A stretch of 64,000 bases of DNA from an uncultured Gammaproteobacteria bacterium. Lineage in GTDB: Bacteria > Pseudomonadota > Gammaproteobacteria > CAWCPV01. Under the pieces are notes generated by a model. The model was not told the DNA's origin. It worked only from the letters and a program-made list of their open reading frames with translations, and ran no database searches. The stretch is from NCBI GenBank assembly GCA_963797555.1, contig CAWCPV010000003.1, forward strand, positions 320,001 to 384,000, given 5' to 3'. Each line of letters opens with the position of its first letter. Position 1 is the stretch's first letter. This document shows, piece by piece, positions 2,192-30,810 of the stretch. Both the position numbers and the translations under genes were made by a program.

Positions 2192-3306
2192 TGTATAGCT
2201 CCGATTTCTCTGGACACGAGGGGAAGTGATACTTGAGGTGTCATGCAGAGAAGATTGGAGATGGCCAAGAAGTCCGCGTTGAGCCCTGCAGGGCATTCGC
2301 AGCTTGTGTTGCGGCTGTTGAGCAAGGAAGAGTCGGCGGCCCAGATCGCGCGCCGGGCTGGGGTGTCGGAGCAGAGCCTGTAGCGCTGGCGTGATGAGTT
2401 TCTGAGCGCCGGCAAACAGGCGCTGGCCGGACGGGATGCCGACCGGGAGCAGGCATTACAAGCACATTGCGGTGGTGGCGCGTCGCCAGGGTTTGGCAGT
2501 GAGCAACAAGGTGGTCTACCGGGTGTTCAAGGCCGCCGGGCTGTTGCAAAAGCGCCGGGTACGCGAAGCGGCACTGTATCAGGCGGCGCGTCTGTTCGAG
2601 CTGCTGCCCTCCAAGCCGAACGAGCTGTGGCAGGCCGATGTCACTTATCTGCACATCCCGGGACACGGGTGGTGGTACGCGGTCACCGTCATCGACTACT
2701 ACTCGCGTTACCTGCTTGCCTGTCACTTCACGGCCAGCTACAGCGCGCCGGAGGTCGCCGCCGCCCTCGATAGCGCCCGCGCCGAAGCCGAGCGGCTGCA
2801 CGGACCCCTGGCGAAGCCCCCGTTCTTGGTGACCGACAACGGCTCAAGCTTCCTCGCCCGGCACTTCCAACGGCACATCGACGGGCACTACACCCATGTG
2901 CGCATCCAATACCGCACCCCGACCCAGCTCGGGCTGCTGGAGCGCTTTCATCAGACGCTCAAGACCCGAGGAGGTTACTGGAACCTCTACCAAAGCCCAG
3001 GCGAGGCACGAGCCTCTTTGGAGCGGTTCCGAAGCCGCTACAACGAGGTGCGACCCCACTGGGCGTTGCTCCCCGTGGGCGGGGGTGACCCGTTCACTCC
3101 GGCCGATGTCTATGTCCAGGGGCAAGCAAAGTCCAGCTCCCAAAGTGGCAAGGCTGGGCGAAAGCGGCCAGAGAGAAGCTCAAGCAGATGGCCGAAGGCG
3201 CTCACCTGCCCCTCGGGGCTGAGGCCTCGGAAGCGGTCTCCTGATACCGGTGAGTACTCTCACAAAATCAGGTCGGACGTGTCCAGTTGATTTCGGAGCC
3301 AAGACA
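2192..3306 (+). mobile_element. IS3-family element; orfA has an internal stop, orfB 2436..3290 carries the integrase core
   Basis: TG...CA imperfect TIRs; PNELWQADVTY, LVTDNGSSF and ERFHQTLK motifs. Confidence 0.85.
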
Positions 3307-3362: not shown

Positions 3363-4757
3363 TTATGAAAATGATCCGCTGGGATCCACCACATAGTTCC
3401 ACTGTCCGAGAACTTCATCGTGGCGAATAAATTTGTCTTTAATAGCGTGGAATGTATCGGAGCACTTCCGCCCCAGTGCGTAGCTTGTGTCGAGAATACG
3501 GGCGGTAACCCGCAAGCCAGTTTTGGTATGGGTACGCTCTACGGTTTCCAGTGCGGTCTGGGGTGAGTCCAGGATGACGCCGCGCCAGGATCGCTCGACG
3601 TGGCTGAACAAGCGGTGCTCAATGGGATTCCACTTGGTAAGTATAAGGCGGGTAGTGCGCGATACGCAGGCGACGCCCCAAGCGCTTGGCGAGCGCCACG
3701 AGGTCTTCCTTGAAGCGATGGGAGCGCGCGGCGTTGGCGCCGCCGGCGTCGCAGAGCAACAGGATCTCCTCAGCCTCGGGGCAATGGGCGCGGCGGTCCT
3801 CCTCCCACGCCAGTGCGATGGCCTCGCAGACGAACGCACTGGTTTCCCGCGAGGTGCCCAGCGTCAGGAAGCCGACGTTGGCGAAGTAGTCGTAAACGCC
3901 ATGGGGCACCAACAGACCGCTGGCCAGGTGACGAAAATCGTGATCGTACACGTACTGCTCGGCGCTTCTGTAGCATTGCCCACGCCGATACCGGGCGCCG
4001 AGCAGCTCCTTCTTCTTGGTATCGGCAGACAGCACCGGGATGCCCCGGCGCCGGGCCAAACGAGGCAACGCATCGATATAACGAAACTGTTGGTCGCGCT
4101 CGCGCGGGTCGACCTGTCCGGTGATCAACTCCTTGCGCAGGGAACGACGCCGATAGCCGGCCCGCTCCAAAAGTTGCGCCGCCGTGTTGCGGCCGATCTC
4201 GTAGCCACGTTGGAGCAGTTCCTGCGCCAGTTCCAGCGGTTTCAGATCCGTCCAACGTACCGTCTCGTCGGTCGGACTGCCGGCGCTGTGGGCTTCAAGA
4301 ATGTCGCCGACCGTCGCCTCCAGCCCCGCGTGGCGTTCGGTGATCTTCGGTCGACCACCGCCTGGCCGCCGGATGCGCTTGGCATCGCCACTGGGACGCC
4401 CCGGGTGTTCGGGATCGTCGTTGCGCATCTCCTCCAACTCGCGAATCCCGGTGTAGATCGTGCACCGGCTCATGCCCAAGACCCGCGACACGTAGGCGAT
4501 GCCGCCGAAACCGATCTTCAACGCCTCAAGCGCCGCGTAGCGCCGCCGATGGTCCTCCGGCAACGAACGGCAATAGAGCCTCATGAATTCTTCGTGCGAC
4601 GCTTCATAACCGGGAAACTCGTTCATGGCGTTACCCACGGACTGGGCTAAGCAGACATCATGTTTGCATCAATATTGTTCCCGTTCAAGCAACTATCGGC
4701 CCAGGTCCAGACTCTACACCACGAAAGCTGGATAACTTGTTAGTGAACCGTTCCTAA
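3363..4757 (-). mobile_element. ISAzo13-family transposase, frameshifted (3619..4638 plus 3363..3839)
   Basis: RRRYAALEALKIGFGGI, SADTKKKE, CDAGGAN and KWNPIEHRLFS motifs. Confidence 0.85.
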
Positions 4758-4842: not shown

Positions 4843-4896
4843 GGGAGTTGGTGGGCGATGCTGGGTTCGAACCAGCGACCCCTGCCGTGTGAAGGC
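4843..4896 (-). repeat. att site of E1: 54-bp duplication of the tRNA-Val 3' end
   Basis: Identical to 14659-14712. Confidence 0.95.
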
Positions 4897-4992
4897 GTTT
4901 TTGACCCACTGCAAGACTAAGGCCGTCGCTACTGTGGCAACGGACATTAGTAGACGCTTGTGCACCAAAGTAGCCCGAAATATATTCAACTT

Positions 4993-5037
4993 GCACTTAC
5001 ATAGCACTTACGGTTGGGACGCTGCCGTTGCACTTAC
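4993..5037 (+). repeat. Putative integrase arm-type sites, GCACTTAC x3 (also x2 at 14598-14616)
   Basis: Same octamer in 11-bp-spaced pairs just inside both att ends. Confidence 0.6.
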
Positions 5038-5296
5038 TGCGCGGGCGCGGCTGGTGAGGCCAGTTGACGCGAGGAAAAATTGCCGTCAACATGGGAACGC
5101 GACTGTGCTATGACCCCCGCACGGATGGCGGGGCGAGTCAGCGTCGGGTTTCGCGCGTCATCGAGCGCGCTAACTTGTCAGCGCACCTGACAACTTTTTG
5201 GCCGCCCGTTAGAGACTGAGTACGTTCAGCCAGGGCCTAGATTCTCTCCCGGGCGGGGGATTCAGGCACTGGTGCGTCCGTCTTTGAAGGACCCAT

Positions 5297-5331
5297 AAGC
5301 CGATCCTCTTCGCCCTGGGGGATCGGCTTTT
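5297..5331 (+). terminator. Hairpin plus T-run upstream of the alpA-like gene (terminator or attenuator)
   Basis: AAGCCGATCC...GGATCGGCTT followed by TT. Confidence 0.45.
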
Positions 5332-5352
5332 CGCGTTTTGAGGGTCTAACCA

Positions 5353-5581
5353 ATGGGCGATCGTTCGCTTTCCCGCCGCGGGATGACTTCCGTCGAGGCG
5401 GCCGAATATCTCTCTGTCAGTGATTCCTTTTTGCGGCGCTCGCGTTGCGAAGGCGACCGCGAAGGCCGCGCGGCCGGGCCACCTTGGTCCAAGATCGGCC
5501 GACGCATCATCTACGCGATAGCCAGACCTGGACAGCGTGGTTGGCTCGCACCGCCGCACCAGTCCCACCAAGGCTGCCTGA
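5353..5581 (+). CDS. AlpA/excisionase-like HTH protein (apparent frameshift near 5523)
   Basis: EAAEYLSVSDSFLRR...GPPWSKIGRRIIY continues as DLDAWL in another frame. Confidence 0.7.
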
Positions 5582-5726
5582 CCATGGCCGCCGATCGCCG
5601 CTACACCCCGCCTCCACCGCAGGCAGACCGCCGCCGCCCTGGACCGCCACCGGAGCGGCCCCGGCACCGCTCCGAACGGTTGCCGCGCGTGCCGACACCG
5701 GCGCTGAAGAAGAAAGGGCGCATGTC

Positions 5727-6014
5727 ATGAGCGCCACCAGGAGCGCTCGGGGCGACCCCGGGCCCCAGAACGACGACGGCCCCGAGGCTGGGCACCTCGA
5801 GGCCGCGGAGCAGACAACACCGACGCCTCAGGATACCACAACTTGCGCCGCGTGCGAACGCCCGGCCGCCCCAGGGCGCATCCTCTGCGCGCAGCACCAG
5901 CGCGATCTCACCCGCCTTCCATGGCGCTGCTCAGTCTGCGGTGAGCCCAACGACGGCCGCGAGAGCGGGCTGTGCTTGCGGCACCTACGCGAAGTCAGTG
6001 GGTGGCCGACATGA
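5727..6014 (+). CDS. Small Cys/His zinc-finger-like protein
   Basis: CAAC...CAQH...CSVC...CLRH; homologous segment in E2 at ~26980-27130. Confidence 0.6.
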   Translation: MSATRSARGDPGPQNDDGPEAGHLEAAEQTTPTPQDTTTCAACERPAAPGRILCAQHQRDLTRLPWRCSVCGEPNDGRESGLCLRHLREVSGWPT

Positions 6015-7934
6015 GCAAATCCCTATATGAACGCGGCCTGGAGCTGGACCGTGCGGAGGCCAAGGTCGACGCTGCCCGCAAACGCCGTGAGCGGCGCAAG
6101 GCCAACGGGGCGGGCGAGGCCCCGGCGACCGACGCGGATGGCAGGCCGGTTATTCACTGGGTGGGTGGTGCGCTTGAACAAGCGGTGTCCGCTGCCGAGG
6201 CCGCCATCCTGGCCGACGGAGGGGAGGCCATCTACCAACGCGCGGGATCATTGGTGCGCGTGGTACGGCTGCCGTCCGGCACCGTTCGAGGATTCAAGCG
6301 CCCCGATGGCACGCTGGGCATCCTGCCCGTGGAAGCCGGCTATCTCACGGAGCGGTTCAGTGTGGCCGCTAGTTGGGTACGCTGGGACGACAGGACGATC
6401 GATGGGTGGAAGCGGATCGCCCCCCCGCCCAAGCGGCGAATACCTACCTGGCTCGGAGCGGGAAGTGGAGCGTGCCAGCACTCACGGGGCTGGTCGCGAC
6501 ACCCACGCTGCGCCCGGATGGAAGCCTGCTGAGCCTCCCTGGGTACGACGAGGCGACCGGGCTGCTGTACGTGCCGGGAGGACTCGTATGTCCTTCGATA
6601 CCCGATCATCCGACCTATGAGGACGCGCGAGCCGCGATCGAGGTACTGCGCGAGCCGTTGGCGGGCTTCCCGTTTGCCGACACGCAAGCCATAGCGTCGT
6701 ACTGTCCGCAATCCTCACGGCGCTCTGCCGCCATGCGCTGCGCTCGGCACCGCTGCTCGGCTTCGATGCGACCGTCATGGGGAGCGGCAAGACTCTTCTG
6801 GCCGACGTGGTGGCGATGATAGCCACCGGCCGCCGAGCTGTCATCATGGCGCACTCGCCCCAACCCGAAGAGGAACGTAAGCGCCTGCTCTCTGTGCTGT
6901 TGGATGGCGCGCCGCTGGTGGTGGTCGACAACATCGGGGCGACGTGGACATCCGACGCGCTGTCCGCAGTTCTGACCGCGGAGACCTTCAAGGATCGCGT
7001 GTTGGGGGCGAACCGCATGGTAGAGGCACCTACGGCGGTTACCTGGCTCGCGACGGGGAACAACCTGACGTTTGCCGGAGACCTGGCAACGCGCGTGTTG
7101 GTGGCTCGCATCGAGCCTCAGTGTGAGCGCCCCGAGGAGCGTCGGTTCGAGCGCGATCTCTATGACTGGATACCACGGCACCGGGGAATCCCGGTGGCCG
7201 CCGCACTGACCATCCTGCGCGCATACCAGGAGTCGGGCAGGCCAGACATGAAGGTGAAGCCATACGGACGCTTCGAGGACTGGTCGTCATGGATTCGATC
7301 GGCGCTCGTGTGGCTCGGGGAAGCGGACCCTTGCGATACACGCGGCAGTATCGAGGACGCTGATCCGGTGCGATCTCAATTGCGGGATCTGCTAGGCGCC
7401 TGGCATGAGCGTTATGGCACTTCCGCGGAGACGATAGCGCGCGCCATCGATGGCGGAGGAGACCCACTGCGTGCAGCAATGTATGCGATTGCCGGAGAGC
7501 GCAACGACATCAACACGCGAAAGCTCGGGCGTTGGATGCTGCGGCACAAGGGGCGCATTGTCGACGGCAAGAGCTTTGGCCAGCACCGGAGCGGGCACGC
7601 GGCGCGATGGGCTGTCGTGGTGACTCAAAAAGAAGGTAGCGGTTATTGCTCTAAATGCGGTTACCCCCATAGGGTGGATCAAAATTGTCAAAACAACACA
7701 GATAGTGTGGATAATAAAGAGACCGACAATTCTGGGGGGGTGAGTGGGGCAAACCGCAAACATACCAGTAACCGCAGACCCGAGACCCGCCAACCCGGCT
7801 CCGGCGACCACCTCGTGCGCTGCGCCGATTGCTCGCGTTACCGTTGGGCAGAGCGTTGCGGCGCCGGGCTGTACTCGGGCGATCCGTTGAAGCCTAGGGA
7901 CTGTCCCGAGTTCGAGGTGCGATCAGGCACATGA
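6011..7934 (+). CDS. Satellite replication P-loop ATPase/helicase, split across frames (6011-6532, 6373-6819, 6777-7934)
   Basis: YQRAGSLVRV and PTLRPDGS..PGYDEATGL motifs, Walker A GSGKT, Walker B VVVDN, ATGNNL. Confidence 0.7.
7639..7775. promoter_or_regulatory. Candidate replication origin of E1
   Basis: GCGGTTA x2 facing (T/A)AACCGC x2 around an AT-rich core containing DnaA box TGTGGATAA (7706-7714). Confidence 0.5.
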
Positions 7935-7947
7935 TGGAGGTGCAACG

Positions 7948-8367
7948 ATGAAGACGTTTCCAAAGTTCGATGCTGCGAAGCAGGGGTTACCAGCGTGGTT
8001 CGTCTATCAGACCGAGCCGCTGGATTTTTTCTTTGGGTTGTCGAGCCTGGAGCATGCCGCGAAGGACGCGCTTGCGATGGATGATGGCTATGGGCGCGAG
8101 AGATTGATGACCTCGCTGGTGAAGCAGGCCATGGAGGCCGCTTATGTGGTCTCCAAGGCGAAGGGTTCCTATTGGGAAGGAGACATTCGGGCGAGTGAGT
8201 TGTACGTTTTCGGAATACCGGACCCGGAGAACCATGGTGTGCGGCATGGATTCATCTGGAAACAGGACAACAACGGTACGACGTTCATCGTGAGTCCCGT
8301 ACAGATTCCTTGGCTAGAGGATAGCCTGTTGGTGGAGCAGCCACGCACCGGGACAGCCGGCGCATGA
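7948..8367 (+). CDS. Hypothetical protein
   Basis: GGAGG RBS, protein-like composition, operonic. Confidence 0.75.
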   Translation: MKTFPKFDAAKQGLPAWFVYQTEPLDFFFGLSSLEHAAKDALAMDDGYGRERLMTSLVKQAMEAAYVVSKAKGSYWEGDIRASELYVFGIPDPENHGVRHGFIWKQDNNGTTFIVSPVQIPWLEDSLLVEQPRTGTAGA

Positions 8368-8392
8368 CGTTCAACACGAGAGGGCAACCGAC

Positions 8393-8872
8393 ATGACGAA
8401 GAAGGACAAGACAGCCGTTCACAAAAAAGCGCGGGATGTGCGAATCGGCGGGCCGATCGCCCCAATGATTGTGGCGCTTGAGTGTGATCCTACGGGGGAC
8501 AATTGGCGCGTTTGCGGTGTGTGCGGCCGGGACATGAAAGACGACTACGGGGTGGTTGCTGAGGCCAAGCGAACGCTCTGGGATGCCGATGATTTTGTGG
8601 TGTGCGAGCATTGCATCAAGGATGGCGATGTGCCGGAGAAGCTCATAAAGCGCGCCAAAGCTCTGGAAGACAAAGCCGCAGATCTGCGAAATCTGGCCGG
8701 CCGAATAGTGGTCCCGAGCTTCGAGGATTGGCAGCGTGCGAATTATCGGCACGACGCCGCGTTCTGCCGAGCGCGCGGGTATCCCGTGGAGACGTTCGAG
8801 GAATGGATCGCGAGGCGGGAGAAGATCAAGGAGGAAAAAGAGCCCGTGGACGATCACACGGGAGCGATGTAG
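8393..8872 (+). CDS. Hypothetical protein with CxxC...CxxC
   Basis: GAGGG RBS; CGVC and CEHC. Confidence 0.7.
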   Translation: MTKKDKTAVHKKARDVRIGGPIAPMIVALECDPTGDNWRVCGVCGRDMKDDYGVVAEAKRTLWDADDFVVCEHCIKDGDVPEKLIKRAKALEDKAADLRNLAGRIVVPSFEDWQRANYRHDAAFCRARGYPVETFEEWIARREKIKEEKEPVDDHTGAM

Positions 8873-8958
8873 TTCGTGAGTGACAGACCTTCGAGGAGTA
8901 TTGCGAGGGGCGGTGGGAAATGAGCCGAGTTAATGCCAGAGATCGGAGAGGGTTGGAG

Positions 8959-9120
8959 CACTTGTCTTATCATTCGACAAGTGTTTGTTGCAAAATGTTA
9001 CCAATTGGTAACACTTCTTCATGGTGCCGTGAAGAAGTTAGGAGCGCCAGATTGCCGAAGCGGATGGGACGGTGAGGCACCAAACAGTCATGCGGTCTAC
9101 TGTTACAAATGTAACAGTAG
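8959..9120. repeat. Cluster of three unrelated palindromes
   Basis: CACTTGTC-N9-GACAAGTG (8959-8983), TGTTACCAATTGGTAACA (8996-9013), CTACTGTTACA-AA-TGTAACAGTAG (9097-9120). Confidence 0.9.
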
Positions 9121-9156
9121 CGGTTCTGACTTATTCTGTGACCAGAGAGATCTTCA

Positions 9157-9219
9157 AAAGGTACTCCCGGCCTTCCCCAATTGCGGCGGCCAAGCCCGCG
9201 GAATCTCGCTAGCGTAACG
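9157..9219 (+). promoter_or_regulatory. Lambda-like cos (cosQ/cosN-like) packaging site candidate
   Basis: AGGTACT...TTGCG-GCGGCCAAGCC-CGCGG..TCGCTA directly before terS; conserved at 30725-30787. Confidence 0.6.
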
Positions 9220-9240
9220 TCCCCCTAGAGGGTTCCTTCC

Positions 9241-9798
9241 TTGGGAAAGTTGGTTAATAAGCGAGCATTGGCGGAGATTTTCGACATCAGCGAGCGGACG
9301 ATTACCGGGCTGTTGAAGCTCGGGTTGCCCATCGAGAAGCGCGCTGTTCGAGGCCGTCCGCACGTGTTCGACACGGCGCACGTGGTTGCTTGGTTGATCG
9401 AGCGTGAGGCCGCCAAGCATAAACCCAGCAGCAGCAACGGCGATGGGCGGCGCCTGGATTTGGATCAGGAACGAGCCATGCTCGCAGCCGCTGATCGCGC
9501 GTTGAAGGAACAAACCCTGCGCGCGCGGTCTGGCGAGCTTGTTTCCGCATCCTGGGTGCGGACTTCCGCTCGAGCGCTCTGTGGAACCGTTCGCGAGCGG
9601 TTCGAGGTCCTGCCGGATAGACTGTCTGCAATTCTCGCGGCCGAGAGCGACGAGCGCAAGATTTATGATCTGATGGCACGCGAGATACGCTTTGTGCTAG
9701 GTGAACTCGCTGAGGGTTCGAAAGCTTTCGGAGGTTCCGATGATGTTGAAAAGACTGAGCCCACTATGGACAGCGACGGCGCGGATCGTCCCGCCTGA
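9241..9798 (+). CDS. terS: Terminase small subunit, lambda Nu1-like
   Basis: VNKRALAEIFDISERTI..GLP...FDTAHVVAW, DLDQERA and GELV motifs. Confidence 0.85.
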   Translation: MGKLVNKRALAEIFDISERTITGLLKLGLPIEKRAVRGRPHVFDTAHVVAWLIEREAAKHKPSSSNGDGRRLDLDQERAMLAAADRALKEQTLRARSGELVSASWVRTSARALCGTVRERFEVLPDRLSAILAAESDERKIYDLMAREIRFVLGELAEGSKAFGGSDDVEKTEPTMDSDGADRPA

Positions 9799-9981
9799 GC
9801 ACCACGAAAAACTCCGCGCGCTGTTCGAGGTAATGGAAGAGCGCCTTGACGTAGAGTTGGATCTAACCGTCGCTCTCGTCGCAAAACAGGCGATAGCCGA
9901 TACCTTGGACGCTATACGAGCCGGATTCAGCGCGGGATTCGCACCACCACCACCACCGAAACACTGATAGGAGATCGCACC

Positions 9982-10194
9982 ATGCCAAAACTCGAATTAC
10001 TCGCCGAACTGTGGACGTGCATTGCGCCAAGGCTCAAGAAGGCGGACCTGGACGAAGCCCACGCTTCGTTCGTTCGCGTCGAGGCCGAGCTGGCCGCCCG
10101 GCTCTCTGCCCTGTTGGCGGGTGCGGTCAACGTCGAGGCCGGCGCCAAGCCTCCACCGAGGCCACCGACCGCCTCACCGGTTCCGCGAGCGTAA
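9982..10194 (+). CDS. Small hypothetical protein
   Basis: GGAG RBS; homologous to 31416-31622 in E2. Confidence 0.6.
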   Translation: MPKLELLAELWTCIAPRLKKADLDEAHASFVRVEAELAARLSALLAGAVNVEAGAKPPPRPPTASPVPRA

Positions 10195-10294
10195 TACGGG
10201 AAGATCCGCGGATGTCGGGCGATGGCCATCAGCATCCGGATCGGTTCCGCCAACGTTGGCGGAACCATCATCCTACGCCCGCGGGACTAGCGCC

Positions 10295-10861
10295 ATGAGC
10301 CGCGATCGCCTCCACCGGCTTCTGACGCTGGCCGAGCGTTCCGATCCGGCGTTGCACGCGTGGTTCCGGGACGCGCTCGCCCGTTGGGAACACGGGCTCG
10401 CCATGGAGCAGGCCCTGGAGCTCCGAGGCGGTTCGGCCAGGGCGCTGCGCGACGCTGGCATCCGGCGCCTGGCTGAGCTGCTGGATTCGGACGGACGGCA
10501 CTCGAGGTGGCATACCGCGGGGCTGGTGGAGCGGGCGCTCGCTCGCCGGCACACCACCGGGGAGATCGGCGTACTGGTGGAGCAGATCATCCGATCGGGT
10601 TGCAGCGTGGTTCCGAAGCGGCGGCAGATCTGGTCCGTCTTGGGGGTGCGCGAGGAGGCGCAGGCGGCAGAGCGGCAGGGGGTGAGTCAGCAGACACTCA
10701 GTCGGGATTTACTCAAAAACAGTGTCATGACTCCAAAAGTTGGTAAACCTCGCCGGGTGAGTCAGCGGACGGTTAGGCGAGATATGGACAAAAACAGTGT
10801 CATGACTCCAAAAGTGTCCAAACCTCGCCAGCGCATCATCTACCAGATCAGCCGGGGCTGA
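10295..10861 (+). CDS. Hypothetical helical protein with a C-terminal 25-aa tandem repeat
   Basis: N-terminus homologous to E2 ~31692-32066. Confidence 0.6.
   Translation: MSRDRLHRLLTLAERSDPALHAWFRDALARWEHGLAMEQALELRGGSARALRDAGIRRLAELLDSDGRHSRWHTAGLVERALARRHTTGEIGVLVEQIIRSGCSVVPKRRQIWSVLGVREEAQAAERQGVSQQTLSRDLLKNSVMTPKVGKPRRVSQRTVRRDMDKNSVMTPKVSKPRQRIIYQISRG
10680..10829 (+). repeat. Two imperfect 75-bp tandem repeats
   Basis: GGGTGAGTCAGC...CAAAAACAGTGTCATGACTCCAAAAGT...AAACCTCGCC at 10680 and 10755. Confidence 0.9.
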
Positions 10862-10941
10862 GGTTTCGCAATTCTCCCCATCGCGTTTGCAAACCGACCC
10901 TGTTTCAATAGAGCCTCAGAATTTATCGCGAGGCGCCGCCA

Positions 10942-12012
10942 ATGCCCATGCCGAAGAGCACATCCCGGTTAACGAAACCGATCGCATTCTCCCGCGGAGA
11001 CGTTCGAGCCGCGATGGGCGATTGGCTCGCGTTACGCGCAGGACTTGTGCGTGCTGAGGAGGCTGATCCAATAGCGCAGGAGCTGCTAGATCCCCTAGCG
11101 CCTGCGAACCTCGCGGACGTGGCTTGCCACCTGTCAGGCCGCGGCAGTGGCGTCACAGCGCACGAGGCGGCACGAGAGTTTCACAGCACCGATTTTAGCG
11201 ACGCGCTGGCGGTCGGGCTGTCCCAGGTGGCTGGCGTTTCTTATGCTCGGCAGGCCGCTGAACATTCCGTCATCGTCAAGGATCTCACGGTGCCGGATCT
11301 CAGGCCCGTCGCATTCCCTGTCATCGACGTGGGCGAACTCACCGAGACGCCGAATGCTGGCGGACCTATCGAGTTCGCTTCGACATTCGCGAATGATGGC
11401 GTATTTGGCGCCGCCAACGTTTTCTCGGCACGTTTCCTGATTCCGCGCCGTTTGCTCGTCAACGATGACGCTGGCGTTGTCACGTTGGCGGTCGCTCAGC
11501 TATCCGGACATGCTGCTCGTCTCGAGGCCCAGGCCATCGCTGCGATTCTCGCGAGCAACCCGAACTTGGGCGATTCCGCGGCACTGATCGACACCGGAAA
11601 CACCGCGAGCGGCGGCATTGCGAATGCCACGGGATTAGCCGCCGCGGCTGGACTCATGAGGACTCGAGTTACTTCTGGCGGGAATGTCGCGAATGTGCGC
11701 GCGCGCTTCTGGCTGGTTGCTGGCGATGCTGAGTTTGCCGCGCTGACGACCCTTGGCGGTATCTATTCGGGAGGCCCGCTGCGGATCGAGGTGGCCACAA
11801 ATGCGTGGCTTCCGGCTGCGACTGCGAGTTATTTACTGGCGTCTCCAGACGACGCTCCGACATTCGTTCGTTTGGGTTTGACTTCACCACCGAAGCCGAG
11901 CGTAATTCAACGTCGCGCACCGCCCGGTTTCGACGGATTGGCGTATGTGATTGAGCACGTTTTCGGAATTGCGGCTGTTTCTCGGGATGGACTTGTGAAG
12001 GTAACGGCATAA
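10942..12012 (+). CDS. Major capsid protein, Mu gpT-like/HK97-fold type, without a fused protease
   Basis: HSTDFSDAL, FSARFLIPRRLLVNDD, AARLEAQAIAAILASNPNLGD and FGIAAVSRDGLVK motifs recalled from gpT-like head proteins. Confidence 0.75.
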   Translation: MPMPKSTSRLTKPIAFSRGDVRAAMGDWLALRAGLVRAEEADPIAQELLDPLAPANLADVACHLSGRGSGVTAHEAAREFHSTDFSDALAVGLSQVAGVSYARQAAEHSVIVKDLTVPDLRPVAFPVIDVGELTETPNAGGPIEFASTFANDGVFGAANVFSARFLIPRRLLVNDDAGVVTLAVAQLSGHAARLEAQAIAAILASNPNLGDSAALIDTGNTASGGIANATGLAAAAGLMRTRVTSGGNVANVRARFWLVAGDAEFAALTTLGGIYSGGPLRIEVATNAWLPAATASYLLASPDDAPTFVRLGLTSPPKPSVIQRRAPPGFDGLAYVIEHVFGIAAVSRDGLVKVTA

Positions 12013-12017
12013 CGGAC

Positions 12018-12290
12018 ATGAGCAGTTTGACACGAGTTCAAGCCCTAGCCGCTGCTCGGAGTTTCCAGCGCCATTCCGGGATTTGCCGACGCTGCGCCAC
12101 TGCGGTGGCTGCCGAGCTTCGCGATTCTGCTCCCGGTATCCCGGCGATTGCCGTTTGCGAATCCGGCGCGGTTGTGGTGGGATTGTTCGCGATGTTGACC
12201 GTCGACGGGGCGTTGCTCGTGCAGCCCTTGGACGTGACCGAGCTGCCGCCCGACACGACGTTCTGCCCGGCGCCGGAGCGCGTTCAATGA
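12018..12290 (+). CDS. Conserved satellite hypothetical protein
   Basis: VQPLDVTELP.D.TFCPAP shared with E2 33190-33471. Confidence 0.7.
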   Translation: MSSLTRVQALAAARSFQRHSGICRRCATAVAAELRDSAPGIPAIAVCESGAVVVGLFAMLTVDGALLVQPLDVTELPPDTTFCPAPERVQ

Positions 12291-12490
12291 ACCGCTGGGT
12301 TTTATGTCGTCGCACCAACGGCGCCCTGCGGCTGGTGCGCGAGGTCACAGAGTCGGAAGGACGAGCAATGGCCGCCGCTGACTCCACCTTGACCTTGATG
12401 CCCAGGGATGAGGCGATCGCTCTCTGGCTGTCTAAGCCGCGGTCCCAGGCCACCGGGAAGATTGCGGACGTGCCCGGCCGCCGCCGCTGA
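12287..12490 (+). CDS. Conserved satellite hypothetical protein (MNRWVLCRR...)
   Basis: ATGA overlap; homologue at 33468 (PRERALALWLS versus PRDEAIALWLS). Confidence 0.6.
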   Translation: MNRWVLCRRTNGALRLVREVTESEGRAMAAADSTLTLMPRDEAIALWLSKPRSQATGKIADVPGRRR

Positions 12491-12553
12491 GCTGATTTTG
12501 CAGCACCCCGATCGGGACTCGTCCCCCCGATCGGGCTCACCTCTCCTGCATTT

Positions 12554-12580
12554 GCCCCGGCTAAGGTCGGGGCTTTTTTT
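12554..12580 (+). terminator. Rho-independent terminator of the capsid operon
   Basis: GCCCCGGC-TAAG-GTCGGGGC followed by T7. Confidence 0.8.
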
Positions 12581-12789
12581 GGGCGGTCGCCGCCATCGGG
12601 GAGCTACTCGGGGTGGACGTGCGGCAGGGGGAGCGGACGGACCTGGGTGGCACTGTCCCGCGCGCGGGACAGTTACCGCGGCAGACCGCATCGAAGTAAC
12701 CGCGCCATCATCGGGGAGCTGCTCGGGTTGGACGCCGTGCGCGGCAAACATACAGACCCAACATTGCGCGGCTGTGCAATGATACCGCC

Positions 12790-13146
12790 GAGCCACCGCC
12801 CGAACGATAAAACTTCACGGCGCCGTGAAGGCAGACCCCTCGCGCGCGGAAGCCACACCCCCTTGCTTAGTACAAAGCAAGGGGTCAACGGCAGACCCCT
12901 CGCGCGCGCGGAGCCACCTTCTGACCGTCCACCCGCGAAGCCTTGCGCTGGGCAGACCCCTCGCGCGCGCGGAGCCACCCTTTCAGGCCAGACTGCGGAC
13001 GGACGGCGAAAAGCAGACCCCTCGCGCGCGCGGAGCCACCCCAGCCATCCTTCCTCGACCAACTCCCGCGGAGGCAGGCGCGCGCGGAGCCACCCTTCCC
13101 ACAGGGTGCCGCTGCTCCGGTAGGTGAGCAGACCCCTCGCGCGCGC
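12790..13146 (-). CRISPR. Cas-less CRISPR-like mini-array, type I-E-like geometry, 6 spacers
   Basis: 28-bp repeat GCAGACCCCTCGCGCGCGCGGAGCCACC at 12891, 12952 and 13013, variants at 12831 and 13074, partial copies at both ends; unique 32-33 nt spacers; strand inferred from I-E resemblance. Confidence 0.8.
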
Positions 13147-13214
13147 TAGCACAAACATGCCATAATGATTGTCCTTGGTTTTTACTTTTACCGGACAGAG
13201 CGGAGAAGGGACTA

Positions 13215-13721
13215 ATGGCACATGCCGCGGCTGGCGTCGAGGCCACCATACGGGGATTTGGGAGCACACTGCACGGGGTCATGCATGCTCCTAACCTTGC
13301 CCTCTTGCGGAGCGTCGACCAGACTGTCGACAGTCTGGCGCGCGAGCAAGAGATAGTCGCTGGATTCGAGCAGATTGCCCGCGGAGCGCTGCAAGCGCTC
13401 AAGGATTGCCGGCCAAAGCGGGCGATCGACCTGGATGGCACGTTGTGCGAGCAGTTGTTGTCAGGCGAGACCGCCATGAAGGCCCGGATTGACGAGTGTC
13501 AGAAGAAAAGGCAAGCGGCGTTTGATGACCCGATGCTTCGCGGTGCGCATGAAAGTGCGGTTGTGTCGGAGTACGACCGCTCGATCGCCTTATGGCGCGG
13601 CCTTCACAATGCGACCGTCGAACTACGCTGGGCTGTGATGGAGTCTGATGCGGACATGGAAGCACCTGTGTCCGAAGAAGCTGAATCGTTGGAAGGCCTT
13701 ATCTCGTCTCTGAAGGCGTAA
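13215..13721 (+). CDS. Putative antitoxin/hypothetical helical protein
   Basis: RBS; ends 6 bp before the RelE-like gene; C-terminus AESLEGLISSLKA. Confidence 0.65.
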   Translation: MAHAAAGVEATIRGFGSTLHGVMHAPNLALLRSVDQTVDSLAREQEIVAGFEQIARGALQALKDCRPKRAIDLDGTLCEQLLSGETAMKARIDECQKKRQAAFDDPMLRGAHESAVVSEYDRSIALWRGLHNATVELRWAVMESDADMEAPVSEEAESLEGLISSLKA

Positions 13722-13727
13722 AGGTGC

Positions 13728-13997
13728 ATGGCCAAAACCCTAGGGGTCAAAGGGTTTAAGCCGTTACCGCGGTTCAAGCGACTCTTCAGGAAACTGGATC
13801 CAAGCGTTCAACAGCAGGTTAAAGATACGCTTGCTGACCTTCAGAAGAACCCCATCCCACCAGGGCGTAGAGTCAAGAAGATGGAGGGACACAAGGATGT
13901 GTGGGAGGCGAGGGTCAACGACAATTTTAGGCTGACCTTCAAGATAGAGGGGGATACTGCAATCCTTCGGAACGTCGGCACCCACGATATTTTGTAA
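13728..13997 (+). CDS. RelE/ParE-superfamily toxin
   Basis: RFKRLFRKL...VKKMEG..DVWEARVNDNFRLTF...LRNVGTHD. Confidence 0.85.
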   Translation: MAKTLGVKGFKPLPRFKRLFRKLDPSVQQQVKDTLADLQKNPIPPGRRVKKMEGHKDVWEARVNDNFRLTFKIEGDTAILRNVGTHDIL

Positions 13998-14146
13998 CAC
14001 CCATTCTGTAACACCGGCGTCGGTAGGCGCCGGGCTATTGGGACGCGGCACCGCCCCCACGATGGCGGGCGCAGGCGTCACAGGACGCCCCAGGCGTCGC
14101 GATCTCGGCCGACTCCATAGGGTGGTATCTCCCCCGGAAGCGCGGC

Positions 14147-14497
14147 TCACTGGTCCAGCTCGACCGCCTCGAATTTAATCCAGAACTCCCGCGTGTCGCC
14201 CTTCAGCCTCACCTGCATGAGGCCGGAGAACATCGCCGTGTCCACCTCATAGACCTGCTGGCCGTCCTTGAACACGATGCACCGGCCCGCCACGACCGCG
14301 ACCGTCAGCAGCTTCTTGAACGCCTCTAGGTCGTGATCACTCGCGAGCCGACCGAGCTTGTCATAGAGATCCCGGTCGACGCAGCCGACGTGCGAATCCC
14401 CCTTGATGTGGCCAGTCAGGGACGCCTGCACAGGCGCGATGCTCAGCAGCAGCCCGAACATCATCCCTAGGCATAGTGCGCCTTCTCTTTTGGTCAT
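14147..14497 (-). CDS. Exported hypothetical protein (cargo)
   Basis: Signal peptide ending PVQA; two Cys in the mature part. Confidence 0.75.
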   Translation of the reverse strand: MTKREGALCLGMMFGLLLSIAPVQASLTGHIKGDSHVGCVDRDLYDKLGRLASDHDLEAFKKLLTVAVVAGRCIVFKDGQQVYEVDTAMFSGLMQVRLKGDTREFWIKFEAVELDQ

Positions 14498-14664
14498 AAG
14501 CCACCCTACCCTGACCCCGCCCCCGCGCGGGGTTTTTGTGCCTGCCGACGCATCGTAACAGCACCGTAACGCGTTACGGGTAACGGTCGGTTGCGATGCA
14601 CTTACAGAGCACTTACGCCTGACCGTCGGCTTTTTCTCACCCTTGCCGAGACCCTTCTGGGAGT

Positions 14665-14739
14665 TGGTGGGCGATGCTGGGTTCGAACCAGCGACCCCTG
14701 CCGTGTGAAGGCAGTGCTCTCCCGCTGAGCTAATCGCCC
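14665..14739 (-). tRNA. tRNA-Val(CAC)
   Basis: Cloverleaf GGGCGATTAGCTCAG...CTGCC-TT-CAC-AC-GGCAG...TTCGAA...CCA. Confidence 0.97.
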
Positions 14740-14793: not shown

Positions 14794-16691
14794 TGTAGCG
14801 CCAAAGTCGTAATGTCCCCTTTGACCAAAGTCGTAATGTCCCCTTTTGGTACTCGAAGGGGGACGTATGGAAGAAGGGGTGATCACGATGAGCCGGCGAG
14901 AGTTGGAGCGACTTGAGGTGATGCAGCGGGTGGCGGGCAGGCGGATCAAACAGGGCGATGCGGCCCGCATGCTGGGGCTATCGGTTCGGCAGGTGAAGCG
15001 CCTAGTGTGTGCGTACCGGCAGGACGGGGCAGCGGGCTTGGTGAGCAAGCGCCGGGGTCGCCGGTCCCATCAGCGCATCCCGGAGGCGGAGAAGGCGCGT
15101 TGTCTTGCCATCGTCCAGTCTCAGTACCCCGACTTCGGCCCAACGCTTGGGGCTGAGTATCTGGCCCAGGCGCACGGGTTTCCCTACTCGGTGGAGACCC
15201 TGCGCGGCTGGATGTCTGAGGCCGGGCTGTGGCAACGAGGCCAAGCCAAGGCGAGCCGTCCCCATCCCCCGCGTGAGCAACGCCCTCGGCTGGGCGAGCT
15301 GATCCAGATCGAGGGCAGCCCGCACGACTGGTTCGAGGGCCGGGGGCCGCGCGTGAGCCTCATCGGCTTCATCGACGATGCCACCAGCCGGGTGATGGCC
15401 GCCCGCTTCGCACCGGTGGAGTCGAGCCGGGCTTACCTCAGTGTGCTCGCGGCGTATGTGCGCCGTCATGGGTGCCCAGTGGCCTTCTATAGCGCGCCGC
15501 CACTCCATCTTCACCAAACACGACCCGCAAGACCCCGAGCCCACCCAGTTCGAGCGCGCGCTGGGGAGCCTCGACATCGCCTCCATCCAGGCCCTCTCCC
15601 CGCAGGCCAAGGGGCGGGTGGAGCGGCTGTTCCAGACCCTTCAGGACCGCCTGGTCAAAGCACTGCGGATGGCACACATCCAGGACATCGACGCCGCCAA
15701 CGTCTTGCTCGACACTTACCTCGAGCGGCACAACGCGCGCTTCGCCGTCGCGCCCGCACCCCCGCAGGATACCCACCGGCCCTGGAGCGGCTCGGTCGCC
15801 GAGCTCTCCCACCTCTGCTCGCTGCAGCACGCGCGCACCCTCTCCAAGAACCTGGTGGTCAGCTTCAGGGGTCAGCGTTACATCCTCCAGACCCCGGCCC
15901 ACGCCCCGCGCTATGGCCTGCGGGGACGGCGCATCACCGTATGCGAGCACCCCGACGGCACCATCGAACTGCTCAACGGCACCGAGGTCCTGCCGTACAG
16001 AGTCTTCGATGAGCGCCGCGACGGGCCTGCCGACCGCAGCGTCGATGACAAGACGCTCAACCAACGGGTCGACCAGGCCATCGCCCGCCTCGCCCCGAGA
16101 ACGCCCCGGAAGCCCCCGGCAGATCACCCTTGGCGGCGACCCTTGCACCCCCATCCCAGACCAACCGCCACCAGCAAGAACTGCCCCTAACTCCCTGAGG
16201 TAAGCCCCCGGCTTTGCCGGGGGACTCACCGAGGTTTGACCTATACGACGGTCGTCGTGAATCTCCAATCTCCGCCAAGAGAAGGAGACGCACGATGAAA
16301 GAGTAGCAGAGTCTGAGCCACACGAAGTGGGACTGTAAGTACCATGTGATATTCATCCCGAAAGCGCAGGAAGAAGCGGATCTTCGGGGCGCTGCGCCGC
16401 CACCTGGGACAGATCTTCCACGAGTTGGCGGGCCACAAGGTGTCCACAGTCGGCTTGGATGAGGCGATGGTGAGGGCCTACATCCGGAACCAAGACCAAC
16501 AGGACGAGCGATACGAGATCAGCTAACGCTGGGGACATAGGTCCAGCCGCCTTGGGCGGCTCCCGGTGTTATGGCGCCTTTGAGGCGCTCACCCAATAAG
16601 CCCCCGGCTTCGCCGGGGGTGAGTTAACTCTCGCCTCAAGGGGACATCTCTACTTTGCAGAAAAAGGGGACATTTCTACTTTGGGTTGACA
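14794..16691 (+). mobile_element. IS1202-family (formerly ISNCY) element; transposase ~14868-16190, frameshifted
   Basis: TGT...ACA ends with internally repeated IR motifs; 15-bp TSD CGTGCCGCGAATGTG at 14779-14793 and 16692-16706; C-terminal KPPADHPWR. Confidence 0.85.
16191..16628 (+). mobile_element. IS200-type element with internally deleted tnpA, nested in the IS1202-like element
   Basis: Both subterminal hairpins; HTKWDCKYHV and VSTVGLDEAMVRAYIRNQ motifs joined by a deletion. Confidence 0.85.
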
Positions 16692-24694: not shown

Positions 24695-24755
24695 CCCTTG
24701 TGTGCCCGGGGCCGGATTCGAACCGGCACGGCCGAAGCCAGAGGATTTTAAGTCC
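24695..24755 (-). repeat. att site of E2: 61-bp duplication of the tRNA-Leu 3' part
   Basis: Identical to 34121-34181. Confidence 0.95.
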
Positions 24756-24873
24756 AGAACTCGGCTGCTACACCAGTCTGCACAGAATTACCCGCCACTT
24801 CACGGGACAACGCGTTCCGGGGCATACTACACTTCACGGCACTACCGCAAATTGCACGGTTTTACTGCTCAAA

Positions 24874-24895
24874 CATAGCACCGGCATAGCACCGG
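24874..24895 (+). repeat. Putative integrase arm-type sites C(A/C)TAGCACC (also 34067-34086)
   Basis: 11-bp-spaced pairs just inside both att ends. Confidence 0.6.
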
Positions 24896-24927
24896 ATCGG
24901 CCCCGAACACAGAGGATTCTGCATCCT

Positions 24928-26162: not shown

Positions 26163-26590
26163 TCGCTCGACCCGGATCACCTCGCAGCACTCGCCCAGAA
26201 GCACCTCGGGGACGAGGTGGACGGGCCAATAGCCGAGGCCCTGATGCAGCAAGCCGAAGTCCTACAGGGACGCCATGGAGCTGGGGGACATCGAGGAAGC
26301 CGTACAGGCCGCGTTCGTCTGCGGTAAGTTCATTGCCATGCTCGCCCCAGGCCATCGCCACCGATCGGCGCACACGGCACGAAGCCTTCAAGCGGCGCAT
26401 GTGGGTGGACGTGCGGACCTATTGGCTACTGCGCGAGGTAGACGAGAGGATCGGCCGCGGCATGGACATCAGCACCGCCTGTCGGGCCGTCGCCAGACGC
26501 CACGATGGCGTTACCTTCGCCGCGCTGCGCCAAGCCTACCATCGGCGCAAAAAAGTTGTGACACGAGGTAGAGTCACAACTTAGCTACTC
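26159..26590 (+). CDS. Hypothetical protein, possibly with a C-terminal HTH (frameshifted)
   Basis: Overlaps the int stop; ISTACRAVARRHDGVTFAALRQAYHR. Confidence 0.4.
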
Positions 26591-26632
26591 TCTAAGCTAC
26601 TCGCGTGCCACCAAACTGCACGAGGGAAGCTG

Positions 26633-29140: not shown

Positions 29141-29227
29141 AAGACCACTTTTTCCGGATCCCCCTTATTCGAGCGACGTTGTAAAGCAGAACCCCGATAA
29201 AGTGGTCAAACCGTAGGTCGTGTCCGT
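29121..29227. promoter_or_regulatory. Candidate replication origin of E2
   Basis: Nested inverted repeats ACGGACACGAC/GTCGTGTCCGT and GACCACTTT/AAAGTGGTC at the helicase gene end. Confidence 0.45.
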
Positions 29228-30365: not shown

Positions 30366-30379
30366 GGTGTTCCGTTATG

Positions 30380-30721: not shown

Positions 30722-30724
30722 CGC

Positions 30725-30787: not shown

Positions 30788-30810
30788 CCTTCAATAGGAC
30801 TTCATTCCCA

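Follow-up and report, generated by a model that had tools for sequence, protein, structure and literature searches.

Two putative cas-less CRISPR mini-arrays of the type I-E class in the cargo region of small capsid-encoding satellites

Two short arrays of repeats and spacers, located in the 64,000-nt stretch of an uncultured gammaproteobacterial genome that was analysed here (the window, part of contig C3), appear from their sequences to be true CRISPR mini-arrays of the I-E class that lack cas genes. The class is assigned because of their 28+33 geometry, the in-register match of their repeats to cas-linked I-E repeats, and the match of one spacer, S6, that ends at the repeat borders. Each array is carried by a small satellite, E1 or E2, and the favored reading, held with about even confidence, is that these I-E-class arrays of mobile elements have a putative function as guide cargo of the satellite, with Cas proteins supplied in trans. 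The arrays would then act only via such I-E proteins; RNA of the + strand would arise either from polymerase that reads through the late-operon terminator or from a weak promoter belonging to the array, Cas6e would cleave it behind the repeat hairpin, and the RNAs would be loaded into Cascade and directed against other mobile DNA.

The carriers appear to be a family of small tRNA-integrated satellites encoding a capsid and a small terminase. E1 (4843-14712) and E2 (24695-34181) are islands of ~9.5-10 kb between tRNA-derived direct repeats, and the satellite-like character that an earlier note on this DNA had ascribed to E1 is supported by these repeats together with a primase-like gene, a Nu1-type small terminase gene and an HK97-type capsid gene. 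Their main features, in coordinates of the window, are as follows.

4843-4896, no strand: E1 left attachment repeat, a 54-nt direct repeat of the 3' part of tRNA-Val and an exact match to 14659-14712
6777-7934, + strand: E1 primase/helicase C-terminal-like gene (PHROG 29234, E=5e-63; PHROG 19930, DNA polymerase/primase)
9241-9798, + strand: E1 small terminase gene, Nu1 type (Pfam PF07471, E=4e-9; PHROG 57, E=6e-33)
10942-12012, + strand: E1 major capsid gene, intact, HK97-type (Pfam PF25209, E=1e-14; PHROG 133/4523; paralogues in the genome)
12554-12580, + strand: E1 capsid-operon intrinsic terminator, an 8-pair stem and T run, matched below gathering score by the terminator part of three sRNA models of Rfam
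12581-12789, no strand: 210-nt stretch between the E1 terminator and array, with debris resembling the repeat and a pair of 32-nt direct repeats (12588, 12703)
13147-13214, no strand: AT-rich stretch right of the E1 array, GC 0.38
13215-13997, + strand: E1 cargo genes, for a 168-aa protein without family and an 89-aa RelE/HigB/ParE-like toxin
14659-14739, - strand: E1 right attachment repeat, overlapping tRNA-Val
24695-24755, no strand: E2 left attachment repeat, 61 nt
32133-32884, + strand: E2 capsid gene remnant with stops and frameshifts (1 TAA and 4 TGA inside matches)
33729-33758, + strand: E2 capsid-operon terminator
34121-34210, - strand: E2 right attachment repeat, overlapping tRNA-Leu

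E1 yielded no integrase, E2 has a partial one, and a paralogous element on contig C6 has an intact one; among the part of the satellite ORFs that was tested there was no match to large terminase, portal or tail proteins. The arrays form cargo of the variable region, which runs from the terminator of the capsid operon to the attachment site on the tRNA side. At this slot the intact C6 paralogue holds other genes, and a third element in the genome keeps only a repeat remnant of 9 nt. PADLOC, applied to six cargo proteins, returned only a faint, non-significant match to Csx3 (E = 0.0086, 13.7 bits).

The E1 array occupies the slot in the following layout.

12790-13146, + strand: E1 mini-array, with 6 spacers of 33 nt among 7 repeat units, of which 3 are intact 28-mers, 1 is a variant, 1 has a 7-nt deletion and 2 are terminal partials
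12790-12797: partial repeat, last 8 bases only
12798-12830, + strand: spacer S1, with an 18-nt perfect palindrome
12831-12857: variant repeat
12858-12890, + strand: spacer S2, a hairpin with a 10-bp stem, -17.5 kcal/mol
12891-12918, 12952-12979 and 13013-13040: intact repeats
12919-12951, 12980-13012 and 13041-13073: spacers S3, S4 and S5
13074-13094: repeat with the internal 7-nt deletion
13095-13127, + strand: spacer S6, whose source is a REP-associated tyrosine transposase gene
13128-13146: partial repeat, first 19 bases only

The 28-nt repeat, six unrelated spacers and 61-nt period on which the earlier note was founded were recovered by direct reading and with a repeat finder, which reported a 29-nt family at 12830 (72%), 12890 and 12951 (100% each), 13012 (97%) and 13127 (72%). 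The copies are spaced by 60, 61 and 61 nt, and a 20-nt sub-family has an extra copy at 13078. Chance is excluded as the origin of the E1 repeat array: when 3 mismatches were allowed, a 27-nt pattern of the repeat gave 3 matches against 0 in 100 shuffles, and a 16-nt core with up to 2 mismatches gave 7 matches against a shuffle mean of 0.6 and maximum of 2. Across the 5.35-Mb assembly the 27-nt pattern is confined to the three E1 copies and the shorter core common to both arrays is confined to E1 and E2, and the E1 repeat is therefore dismissed as a genome-wide REP. The array is absent from the list produced by Tandem Repeats Finder, as expected because the spacers are unique, and an Rfam search at a permissive E-value matched no family of CRISPR repeats; its hits were confined to terminator-like portions of sRNA models and fell short of the gathering scores.

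The flanks of the E1 array are less clear-cut. Both terminal repeats are partial, as had been claimed, but the array follows the capsid-operon terminator in order only and not directly, with 210 nt separating the two; this stretch is either a leader or an older, decayed part of the array. To the right, the AT-rich flank of the earlier description was seen (GC of 0.38 at 13150-13199 against ~0.72 in the surroundings), but it lies directly upstream of the + strand gene at 13215-13721 and is either the promoter and 5' UTR of that gene or a minus-strand leader. A promoter scan of both strands of both arrays found none by its criteria.

A second array lies after the capsid-operon terminator of E2, so that the recurrence of the module at the same position, previously pointed out, holds.

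33802-33999, + strand: E2 mini-array, with 2 intact repeats, 1 degenerate, 1 cut terminal repeat, and 3 spacers
33802 and 33864: starts of the intact repeats
about 33917-33944: degenerate repeat
33979-33999: terminal repeat, first 21 bases, then a run of six T
33830-33863, 33892-33922 and 33945-33978: spacers, the first and third being strong hairpins

Inside each array the repeats are uniform, with three copies of one 28-mer in E1 and two copies of one 24-nt core in E2, and they differ between the arrays (21/28 identical by hand count), which fits the repeat duplication that accompanies in-situ spacer uptake.

The earlier note proposed a search for an I-E cas locus elsewhere in the genome, and contig C9 was found to carry a complete one, with Cas3, Cse1, Cse2, Cas7e, Cas5e, Cas6e, Cas1, Cas2, a leader and 55 repeats. 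The satellite arrays have the geometry of this host array, 28-nt repeats and 33-nt spacers with a 61-nt period, which bears out the type I-E spacing claimed for them, and they were correctly described as cas-less: tblastn with the host's seven I-E Cas proteins found no homologue in the window, and none of the genome's five Cas1 loci is on contig C3. Furthermore, the satellite and host repeats share an outline of a 5' tail, a stem-loop centred on bases 12-15 and a 7-nt 3' tail ending in two C. However, the host-like repeat to be expected of an element that borrows host Cas proteins was not found, as only 18/28 bases agree for E1 and, by hand count, 20/28 for E2, and the 8-10 differing bases include the stem-closing pair and three or four of the 3' tail.

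For E2 a better likeness is found outside this host. Against a reference set of 19 cas2-oriented, cas-linked I-E repeats, drawn from 400 genomes of the class to which this bacterium belongs, the E2 repeat scores 22/28 in register on the + strand and 19/28 with a 2-nt shift on the - strand; the pristine repeat of a metagenomic relative scores 22/28 on the + strand (shift 0) and 17 on the - strand; and the E1 repeat, a weak match, scores 18/28 on the + strand (shift 0) and 17 on the - strand. The + strand thus scores higher or is in register in every case, and the canonical I-E repeat that had been read on the minus strand is not upheld. Within the 3' tail, the first base and the last two bases agree between the satellite and cas-linked repeats, whereas the second of the last seven bases is T in 19/19 of the cas-linked I-E arrays sampled and G in E1, E2 and their metagenomic relatives.

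Strand pointers are divided. On the side of the + strand are the homology register and the design of the array ends: E1 opens with a tail-only partial and closes with a hairpin-side partial, and E2 stops at repeat base 21 before its six T, a layout that fits an RNA made from the + strand. On the other side, the E1 repeat and the whole E1 array fold better on the minus strand, the AT-rich flank is at the right, a terminator-like hairpin is at the far left, and S6, the one spacer with a match, stands at the right end. A clean 6-bp hairpin forms in the host repeat (-13.1 kcal/mol, z -3.1), whereas the + strand E1 repeat reaches only -5.6 kcal/mol (z +1.4) and lacks the in-register stem. For the E2 repeat a 5-bp in-register stem is possible on the + strand by inspection, but the minimum-energy fold differs and is no better than that of shuffles.

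The origin of the spacers bears on whether the arrays were built as CRISPR arrays. S6 matches a REP-associated tyrosine transposase gene at 31/33 positions at C3:779169 and C4:653849, with weaker matches in the genome at 30/33, 29/33 and, twice, 26/33, while shuffled spacers matched nothing in the genome at up to 9 mismatches. The similarity between S6 and the transposase gene stops at the repeat borders. The arrays were built in 33-nt steps, as are those made by I-E Cas1-Cas2, and a mobile gene family that is resident in this genome supplied one spacer or more. As S6 is still 31/33 identical to copies present here, the array was active in this lineage or a close one. The target is a multicopy, chromosomal gene of the same genome, so that an active guide would lead to autoimmunity wherever the PAM was permissive; as to the PAM, just one host I-E spacer has a target, and that is a self-match. 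For the other 8 of 9 spacers no match was found in the genome, including its other satellites, and none among 50,697 INPHARED phage records (blastn, all E >= 0.1). The suggestion that the spacers are aimed at helper or competitor elements gained no support from these searches, as no phage, helper or satellite matched and the sole target found is a chromosomal multicopy transposase gene.

These spacers also argue against the arrays being something other than CRISPR, such as protein-binding sites (iterons, small-terminase or packaging sites, integrase arm sites) or a REP/BIME-like cluster of palindromes, a possibility that we regard as highly improbable. In its favor, the array follows an operon terminator as REP clusters do, the Nu1-type small terminase of the element belongs to a type that binds repeated sites, some inter-repeat segments are palindromic in the manner of operators, and the repeat core is a low-complexity CG run. 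However, REPs would recur in the genome and this repeat is found nowhere else in it, the short tandem repeats near the attachment sites (13989-14015, 14550-14570 and 34017-34037) are better candidates for integrase arm sites, and the same kind of array is present on plasmid-like contigs where no terminase was found among the 20 ORFs tested. Inter-repeat segments are moreover constant in length, unrelated in sequence and turning over between homologous loci, S6 is a 33-nt piece of a transposase gene bounded by repeats, and the repeat is in register with cas-linked I-E repeats.

Although the CRISPR origin appears sound, the module in this genome looks past its prime. Present guide function with this host's Cascade is doubtful because the repeats match the host's at only 18-20 of 28 bases, the E1 hairpin is lost, 4/7 of the E1 units are damaged or partial, and E2 is dead. 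The altered tail base, the poor fold, the eight targetless spacers, the chromosomal targets of S6, the minus-strand features, the missing integrase of E1 and the broken capsid gene of E2 are all counted against the guide reading. Several of these fit an inert relic, that is, an array captured or built in an earlier host with a matching I-E repeat and now decaying with its defective satellites: repeat units are truncated, deleted or variant in 4/7 cases in E1 and 2/4 in E2, the E2 capsid is broken, E1 is without an integrase, the third element is reduced to its remnant, and the closest cas-linked repeat (22/28) is in another genome of the class and not in the host. Against simple decay stand the identity of three E1 repeats (over 28 nt) and of two E2 repeats (over 24 nt), the conservation of a palindromic first spacer through compensatory change, and the match of S6 to copies in this very genome. 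An inert relic is, on this balance, improbable, and guide cargo served by trans-supplied Cas proteins is still preferred.

The palindromic spacers are the feature that an ordinary guide array would not lead one to expect. Folding at or below -15 kcal/mol is found for 6/23 mini-array spacers as compared with 6/191 host spacers (Fisher p = 5e-4), and for 2/9 spacers when the window is taken alone (p = 0.044). S1 and the first E2 spacer agree at 25/33 positions, a conservation comparable to that of the repeats (21/28), and the differences include a symmetric swap inside the palindrome; preservation of the palindrome in this way, in a spacer as conserved as the repeats, points to selection on structure and not on a target. 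On the minus strand S1 scores as a terminator-like site. The palindromes of S1, S2 and the third E2 spacer have no other copy in the genome. Palindromic spacers as REPs of the transposase were also considered and were unsupported, with no REP-like hairpins beside the transposase copies.

Structural selection is what would be expected if the arrays made an RNA decoy, an alternative already offered in the earlier note, or an RNA regulator, in which repeat mimics bind Cas6e, Cas5e or Cas7 without a working Cascade, or steer it to non-cutting binding. In this case the altered 3' tail, which forms the crRNA 5' handle, and the self-folding spacers would block Cas7 threading, and the purpose would be to shield the satellite and its helper from host I-E immunity or to silence host mobile genes. 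We consider this unlikely, in spite of several points in its favor. Besides the enrichment of palindromes and the conserved first spacer, a similar repeat-hairpin-repeat unit with a 61-nt period lies between the last gene and the tRNA of a related satellite in another genome (G075), and the hairpin that precedes the first repeat of the plasmid arrays also changes compensatorily. No cas-adjacent array with the 3' half of this repeat was found in the species-genome scan, the 19 class arrays or the 8 metagenomic loci, and I-E repeat mimics and multi-spacer regulatory arrays borne by mobile elements have been described, as far as the cited parts of these reports go (PMC10651486; bioRxiv 10.1101/2024.10.29.618823). 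However, four E1 spacers are unstructured and resemble ordinary guides, and S6 was truly acquired, for which a decoy has no need. Matches of the spacers to the 12.4-kb host I-E locus and its flanks are at chance level, the longest exact ones being 8-11 nt as compared with 9-12 nt for 300 random genomic 33-mers (continuous matches scored).

A broader version of this idea, which seems quite unlikely, is that the arrays make up a class of their own, I-E repeat mimics on satellites, plasmids and similar mobile elements that serve as traps or non-cutting silencers and not as guide stores. Such arrays would keep the outline recognised by Cas6e and Cas5e, alter the handle, and hold some palindromic spacers by compensatory change, and they would form dead-end complexes with host I-E proteins or let Cascade silence the REP-associated transposase. 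Guide cargo remains the favored reading, and repeats so unlike the host's own raise the alternatives of a module that guides the host immune proteins, jams them, or has lost contact with them.

Sulfolobales viruses and many phages reportedly carry cas-less mini-CRISPR arrays. The arrays described here share with these virus-borne ones the small number of repeats and spacers on a mobile element, the absence of cas genes, the dependence on host Cas and a presumed role in conflict between mobile elements. Virus-borne mini-arrays, as characterised in the cited part of PMC11656645, have repeats identical to the host's and spacers that mostly match related viruses, whereas here the carrier is a satellite, host-repeat identity is 64-71%, 8/9 spacers are targetless, and the ninth points to a chromosomal transposase family. 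Cracr arrays, crRNA-like regulatory arrays of viruses and plasmids that include an I-E array of a Salmonella prophage, have imperfect repeats that impair Cas6 processing and 21-24-nt pseudo-spacers that pair with the host cas promoter (bioRxiv 10.1101/2024.10.29.618823, in the portion drawn on here). The satellite arrays are likewise multi-unit and cas-less, with degenerate I-E-like repeats on a mobile element, but the spacers, 33 nt long in E1, have no above-chance match to the host I-E locus, which also counts against the decoy. Racrs, or RNA anti-CRISPRs, are solitary repeat units that closely resemble the host repeat, with I-E examples tested (PMC10651486, in the sections cited). They too are mimicry of CRISPR repeats by mobile elements, but the present arrays have 4 and 7 units with spacers and only 64-71% host-repeat identity, a further point against a decoy.

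P4-like satellites have been described as having defence hotspots whose cargo is protein-coding (PMC9122126, for the part cited). The satellites of this genome resemble them in having a fixed slot with contents that vary by copy (array, toxin-antitoxin-like pair, DUF2335 protein, or nothing); unlike them, they carry an array cargo predicted to be RNA-coding, encode their own capsid and small terminase, and have a gene content that is not P4-like. A full-text literature search found no description of a cas-less mini-array on a phage satellite, and the candidate tables of the Racr and Cracr studies may hold similar cases; a cas-less CRISPR array as phage-satellite cargo is rare. If functional, the arrays would let a satellite use or disarm host adaptive immunity in a three-way conflict with helper phages and other mobile elements, and would add an RNA-only cargo to satellite defence hotspots. 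Repeats that do not track those of the resident host could change how such arrays are read, as could a palindromic spacer that compensatory change preserves and that is met again in a related satellite and in arrays borne by plasmids.

Relatives of the satellites themselves are scattered. For the capsid protein, a word-based search recovered only the query, and searches of IMG/VR with the single protein or a 6-row alignment found no relatives, while an exhaustive protein search gave 1022 relatives, 25 of them at E <= 1e-30, as sequences without genomic context. Family- and order-level searches returned this genome alone, capsid relatives occur in 7/400 other genomes of the class, 3/7 of them satellite-sized, and a sample of the phylum yielded only 4 phage-size fusions. 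Of the three satellite-sized relatives, G075 has the repeat-hairpin-repeat unit, which is absent within 1.5 kb in G367 and G270. Scans for the repeat had few outcomes beyond the metagenomic loci. Paired repeat 3' halves in the species-genome scan gave two hits, both rejected, a 61-nt tandem whose units are identical, located at the end of a contig of a Burkholderiales MAG, and a chance pair in an actinomycete; in IMG/VR the strict pattern had 0 matches, and the 12 matches of a loose three-copy pattern were all coding tandem repeats.

Metagenomic arrays with the same repeat 3' half were found on plasmid-like contigs (L022-L027) with genes for a relaxase, a coupling protein and ParA/ParB, the shared 3' half being partly a product of the search pattern, which weakens it as a point for the decoy. 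No cas genes were detected on the 8 metagenomic loci, whose plasmid-like contigs are 14-20 kb long, either in 20 ORFs by Pfam or by tblastn. In this they are like the orphan arrays that occur on plasmids (PMC9071438, in the part cited), from which the arrays of the window differ in sitting on satellites. Between flanks that are shared in part, the plasmid-like arrays differ in their spacers, of which they have 1, 3 or 6, a sign of spacer turnover.

The array reported in E1, one of two small phage-satellite-like islands in the window, is confirmed: direct reading and a repeat finder place a 29-nt direct repeat at 12830, 12890, 12951, 13012 and 13127 (spacings of 60, 61 and 61 nt), with an extra copy at 13078 contributed by the repeat finder's shorter repeat family and the repeat's final eight bases standing alone at 12790. 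Parsed as 28 + 33 nt, the array consists of three intact repeats, one variant, one with a 7-nt internal deletion and two partial repeats at the ends, the terminal truncations described earlier, separated by six unrelated spacers of 33 nt each. The repeat pattern matched 3 times and never in 100 shuffles, and a second pattern matched 7 times against a shuffle mean of 0.6, which puts the repeat far beyond chance. The 28-nt repeats, unrelated spacers and 61-nt period of the earlier note stand, and so does its AT-rich stretch to the right (GC 0.38 vs ~0.72). The repeat is restricted to this array and a second one at 33802-33999 in E2, the counterpart module of that note, which occupies the same slot, after the capsid-operon terminator and before the tRNA-side attachment site.

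The genome contains at least four members of the satellite family, fragments included. Three of them lie within ~45 kb, each at a different tRNA gene, and only the copy on contig C6 looks intact.

Copies of the satellite family and contents of the slot
4843-14712: E1 island at tRNA-Val, with exact 54-nt direct repeats including the 3' part of the tRNA gene; slot holds array, 168-aa protein and RelE/ParE-like toxin
24695-34181: E2 island at tRNA-Leu, with exact 61-nt direct repeats including the 3' part of the tRNA gene; slot holds array only
contig C3 ~309000-317000: degraded copy directly upstream of the window; slot holds a 9-nt repeat remnant only
contig C6 ~106400-120000: intact copy with integrase, DUF3987 primase and capsid gene; slot holds three small genes, one DUF2335
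contig C14:474120: fragment

Since the slot content, which varies from copy to copy, is different in each, the arrays sit in a cargo slot. E1 has genes for a primase-like protein, a Nu1-type small terminase and an intact HK97-type capsid protein, and searches turned up no integrase there; E2 has a broken capsid gene and a partial integrase. The cargo beside the E1 array (13215-13997) comprises an 89-aa RelE/HigB/ParE-like toxin and a helical 168-aa protein, which has only two homologues among 5.8 billion proteins, at 78% and 34% identity, and matches Csx3 faintly and below significance; a 116-aa ORF at 14147-14497 lies on the opposite strand to the other cargo. Two insertion-sequence transposase genes (2436-3290 and 3619-4638; rve integrase core, ISAZ013-type DDE) sit just beyond the left end of E1. 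Short tandem repeats of 11-14 nt near the tRNA-side attachment sites of both islands (13989-14015, 14550-14570, 34017-34037) are likely integrase arm-type sites, distinct from the arrays. A perfect 24-nt tandem duplication adjoins tRNA-Val (14801-14846); far downstream, at 60210-60440, there is a 126-nt tandem repeat (1.9 copies, 79% matches).

Six large CRISPR arrays and five Cas1 loci occur in the genome, none on the window's contig, in keeping with the reported lack of a cas gene. The I-E locus that the earlier note proposed to look for is complete on contig C9, with Cas3, Cse1, Cse2, Cas7e, Cas5e, Cas6e, Cas1, Cas2, an AT-rich leader and an array in which 55 repeats of 28 nt alternate with 33-nt spacers. 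For typing, the satellite repeats were compared with I-E arrays adjoining cas2 in 400 sampled genomes of the same class (gene present in 29 of 400; 19 cas2-oriented arrays with a clean consensus).

Matches of satellite-type repeats to the 19 I-E repeats (of 28 positions)
E2 repeat: + strand at most 22, in register; - strand 19, with a 2-nt shift
L022 repeat (a pristine metagenomic relative): + strand 22; - strand 17
E1 repeat: + strand 18; - strand 17

The canonical orientation predicted by homology is therefore the + strand, contrary to the minus-strand reading first proposed. In the 3' tail, the first base and last two bases agree with the sampled arrays, and the satellites deviate at the second, where all 19 have T. 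At family and order level, searches retrieved no genome but this one. Spacer 37 of the host I-E array has a 33/33 match and, 141 nt away, a 32/33 match at C3:928370-928543, outside the window, in a repetitive, Gly-, Pro- and Met-rich chromosomal gene, a self-target tolerated by the cell.

No other single finding argues as strongly for true spacer acquisition as S6, the last E1 spacer (13095-13127). A gene present in several copies in the same genome matches it: two copies at 31/33, two others at 30/33 and 29/33, and two diverged paralogues at 26/33. The similarity ends exactly at the repeat borders, and shuffled versions gave no match at up to 9 mismatches. The gene encodes a REP-associated tyrosine transposase (Pfam Y1_Tnp; NCBIfam NF047646 at its 80-bit cut-off). 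Such genes are usually single-copy; here there are four copies at ~91-93% identity (C3:778757-779517, 781393-781851 and 414733-415423; C4 ~653500-654300) and two diverged ones (C16, C2), and a search for REP-like hairpins next to them gave none. The other eight spacers, searched as the earlier note proposed, match nothing in the genome or in 50,697 phage records.

Relatives were sought as two copies of the repeat's 3' half. Among 185,579 species genomes the scan gave no CRISPR-like hit, and in IMG/VR no match; it yielded eight metagenomic loci, five of them on plasmid-like contigs with relaxase, coupling protein, ParA/ParB, integrase and Tn3 transposase genes. The likeness of the loci in this 3' half stems in part from the search pattern and does not count as independent conservation. 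In the arrays on plasmid-like contigs the repeats are identical, and partly shared flanks enclose 1, 3 or 6 different spacers, which is spacer turnover of the CRISPR kind, and no Cas proteins were found on these contigs (20 ORFs tested; tblastn). In one (L025:1773-2663) the array borders on a coupling-protein gene that is inverted and truncated, with a rearrangement breakpoint at the first repeat. At a Burkholderiales MAG contig end (L009:1-200), three identical 61-nt units containing the same 3' half represent either an array that has collapsed or simple tandem duplication.

The E1 array is very probably satellite cargo, a cas-less mini-array of the I-E class and of CRISPR origin; a literature search of main texts found no description of a CRISPR array on a phage satellite. 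Viral mini-arrays, according to a review (PMC11656645), have host-identical repeats and mostly target related viruses; its passages on them do not mention satellites. Our working model, held at about even chances, is that satellite arrays would use I-E proteins in trans, a use now probably impaired in this genome. Uniform repeats per array, the origin of S6 in a host gene family and an end design suiting + strand RNAs count for host I-E use. Against it count an identity to the host repeat of 18-20/28, damaged or partial units in 4 of the 7 E1 repeats, and folding: the host repeat forms a clean in-register hairpin (z -3.1), the E1 + strand repeat does not, and the E2 + strand repeat folds no better than shuffles, with a drawable 5-bp in-register stem. 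That the array is a pure relic, as the damaged units might suggest and the uniform repeats might not, is rather unlikely. A decoy or regulatory role is likewise judged rather unlikely. RNA anti-CRISPRs are solitary repeat mimics (PMC10651486), and multi-unit regulatory arrays occur on phages and plasmids, one of them I-E with 21-24-nt pseudo-spacers pairing with the cas promoter (preprint 10.1101/2024.10.29.618823). Transcription from the minus strand, as first proposed, fits the better folding of E1 minus-strand RNA, the AT-rich right flank and the terminator-like score of S1, the first spacer, on that strand; the + strand is nonetheless probably to be favoured.

Strong palindromes are found in S1 and S2 of E1, the first and third E2 spacers and several metagenomic-array spacers. 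Folding energies of -15 kcal/mol or below occur in 6/23 mini-array spacers vs 6/191 host-array spacers (Fisher p = 5e-4), all six of the latter from one array with longer spacers; the window alone gives 2/9 (p = 0.044). E1 and E2 have homologous first spacers (25/33), as conserved as the repeats (21/28, manual count), and the two differences that fall inside the palindrome are a symmetric swap that leaves it perfect. In another genome of the class, G075, a capsid relative is followed by two GC-rich repeats 61 nt apart, directly before a tRNA-Asn gene, flanking a hairpin with the same outer arms; two other satellite-size relatives showed no such unit within 1.5 kb. From this conservation, the symmetric swap and the G075 unit it follows that the repeat-hairpin-repeat unit is an old trait of the satellite family, seemingly selected for structure. 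Such hairpins might suit a non-CRISPR reading of the array, which, set beside S6 and the spacer turnover, is very improbable. None of the tested explanations accounts for the palindromic spacers: their palindromes are present at no other place in the genome, lie beside no transposase copies and show no pairing with the host I-E locus. At L024:1-560, upstream of a metagenomic array with this type of repeat, lie about ten different palindromes of 17-25 nt with AT-rich centres, some of which share outer arms with palindromic spacers of that array.
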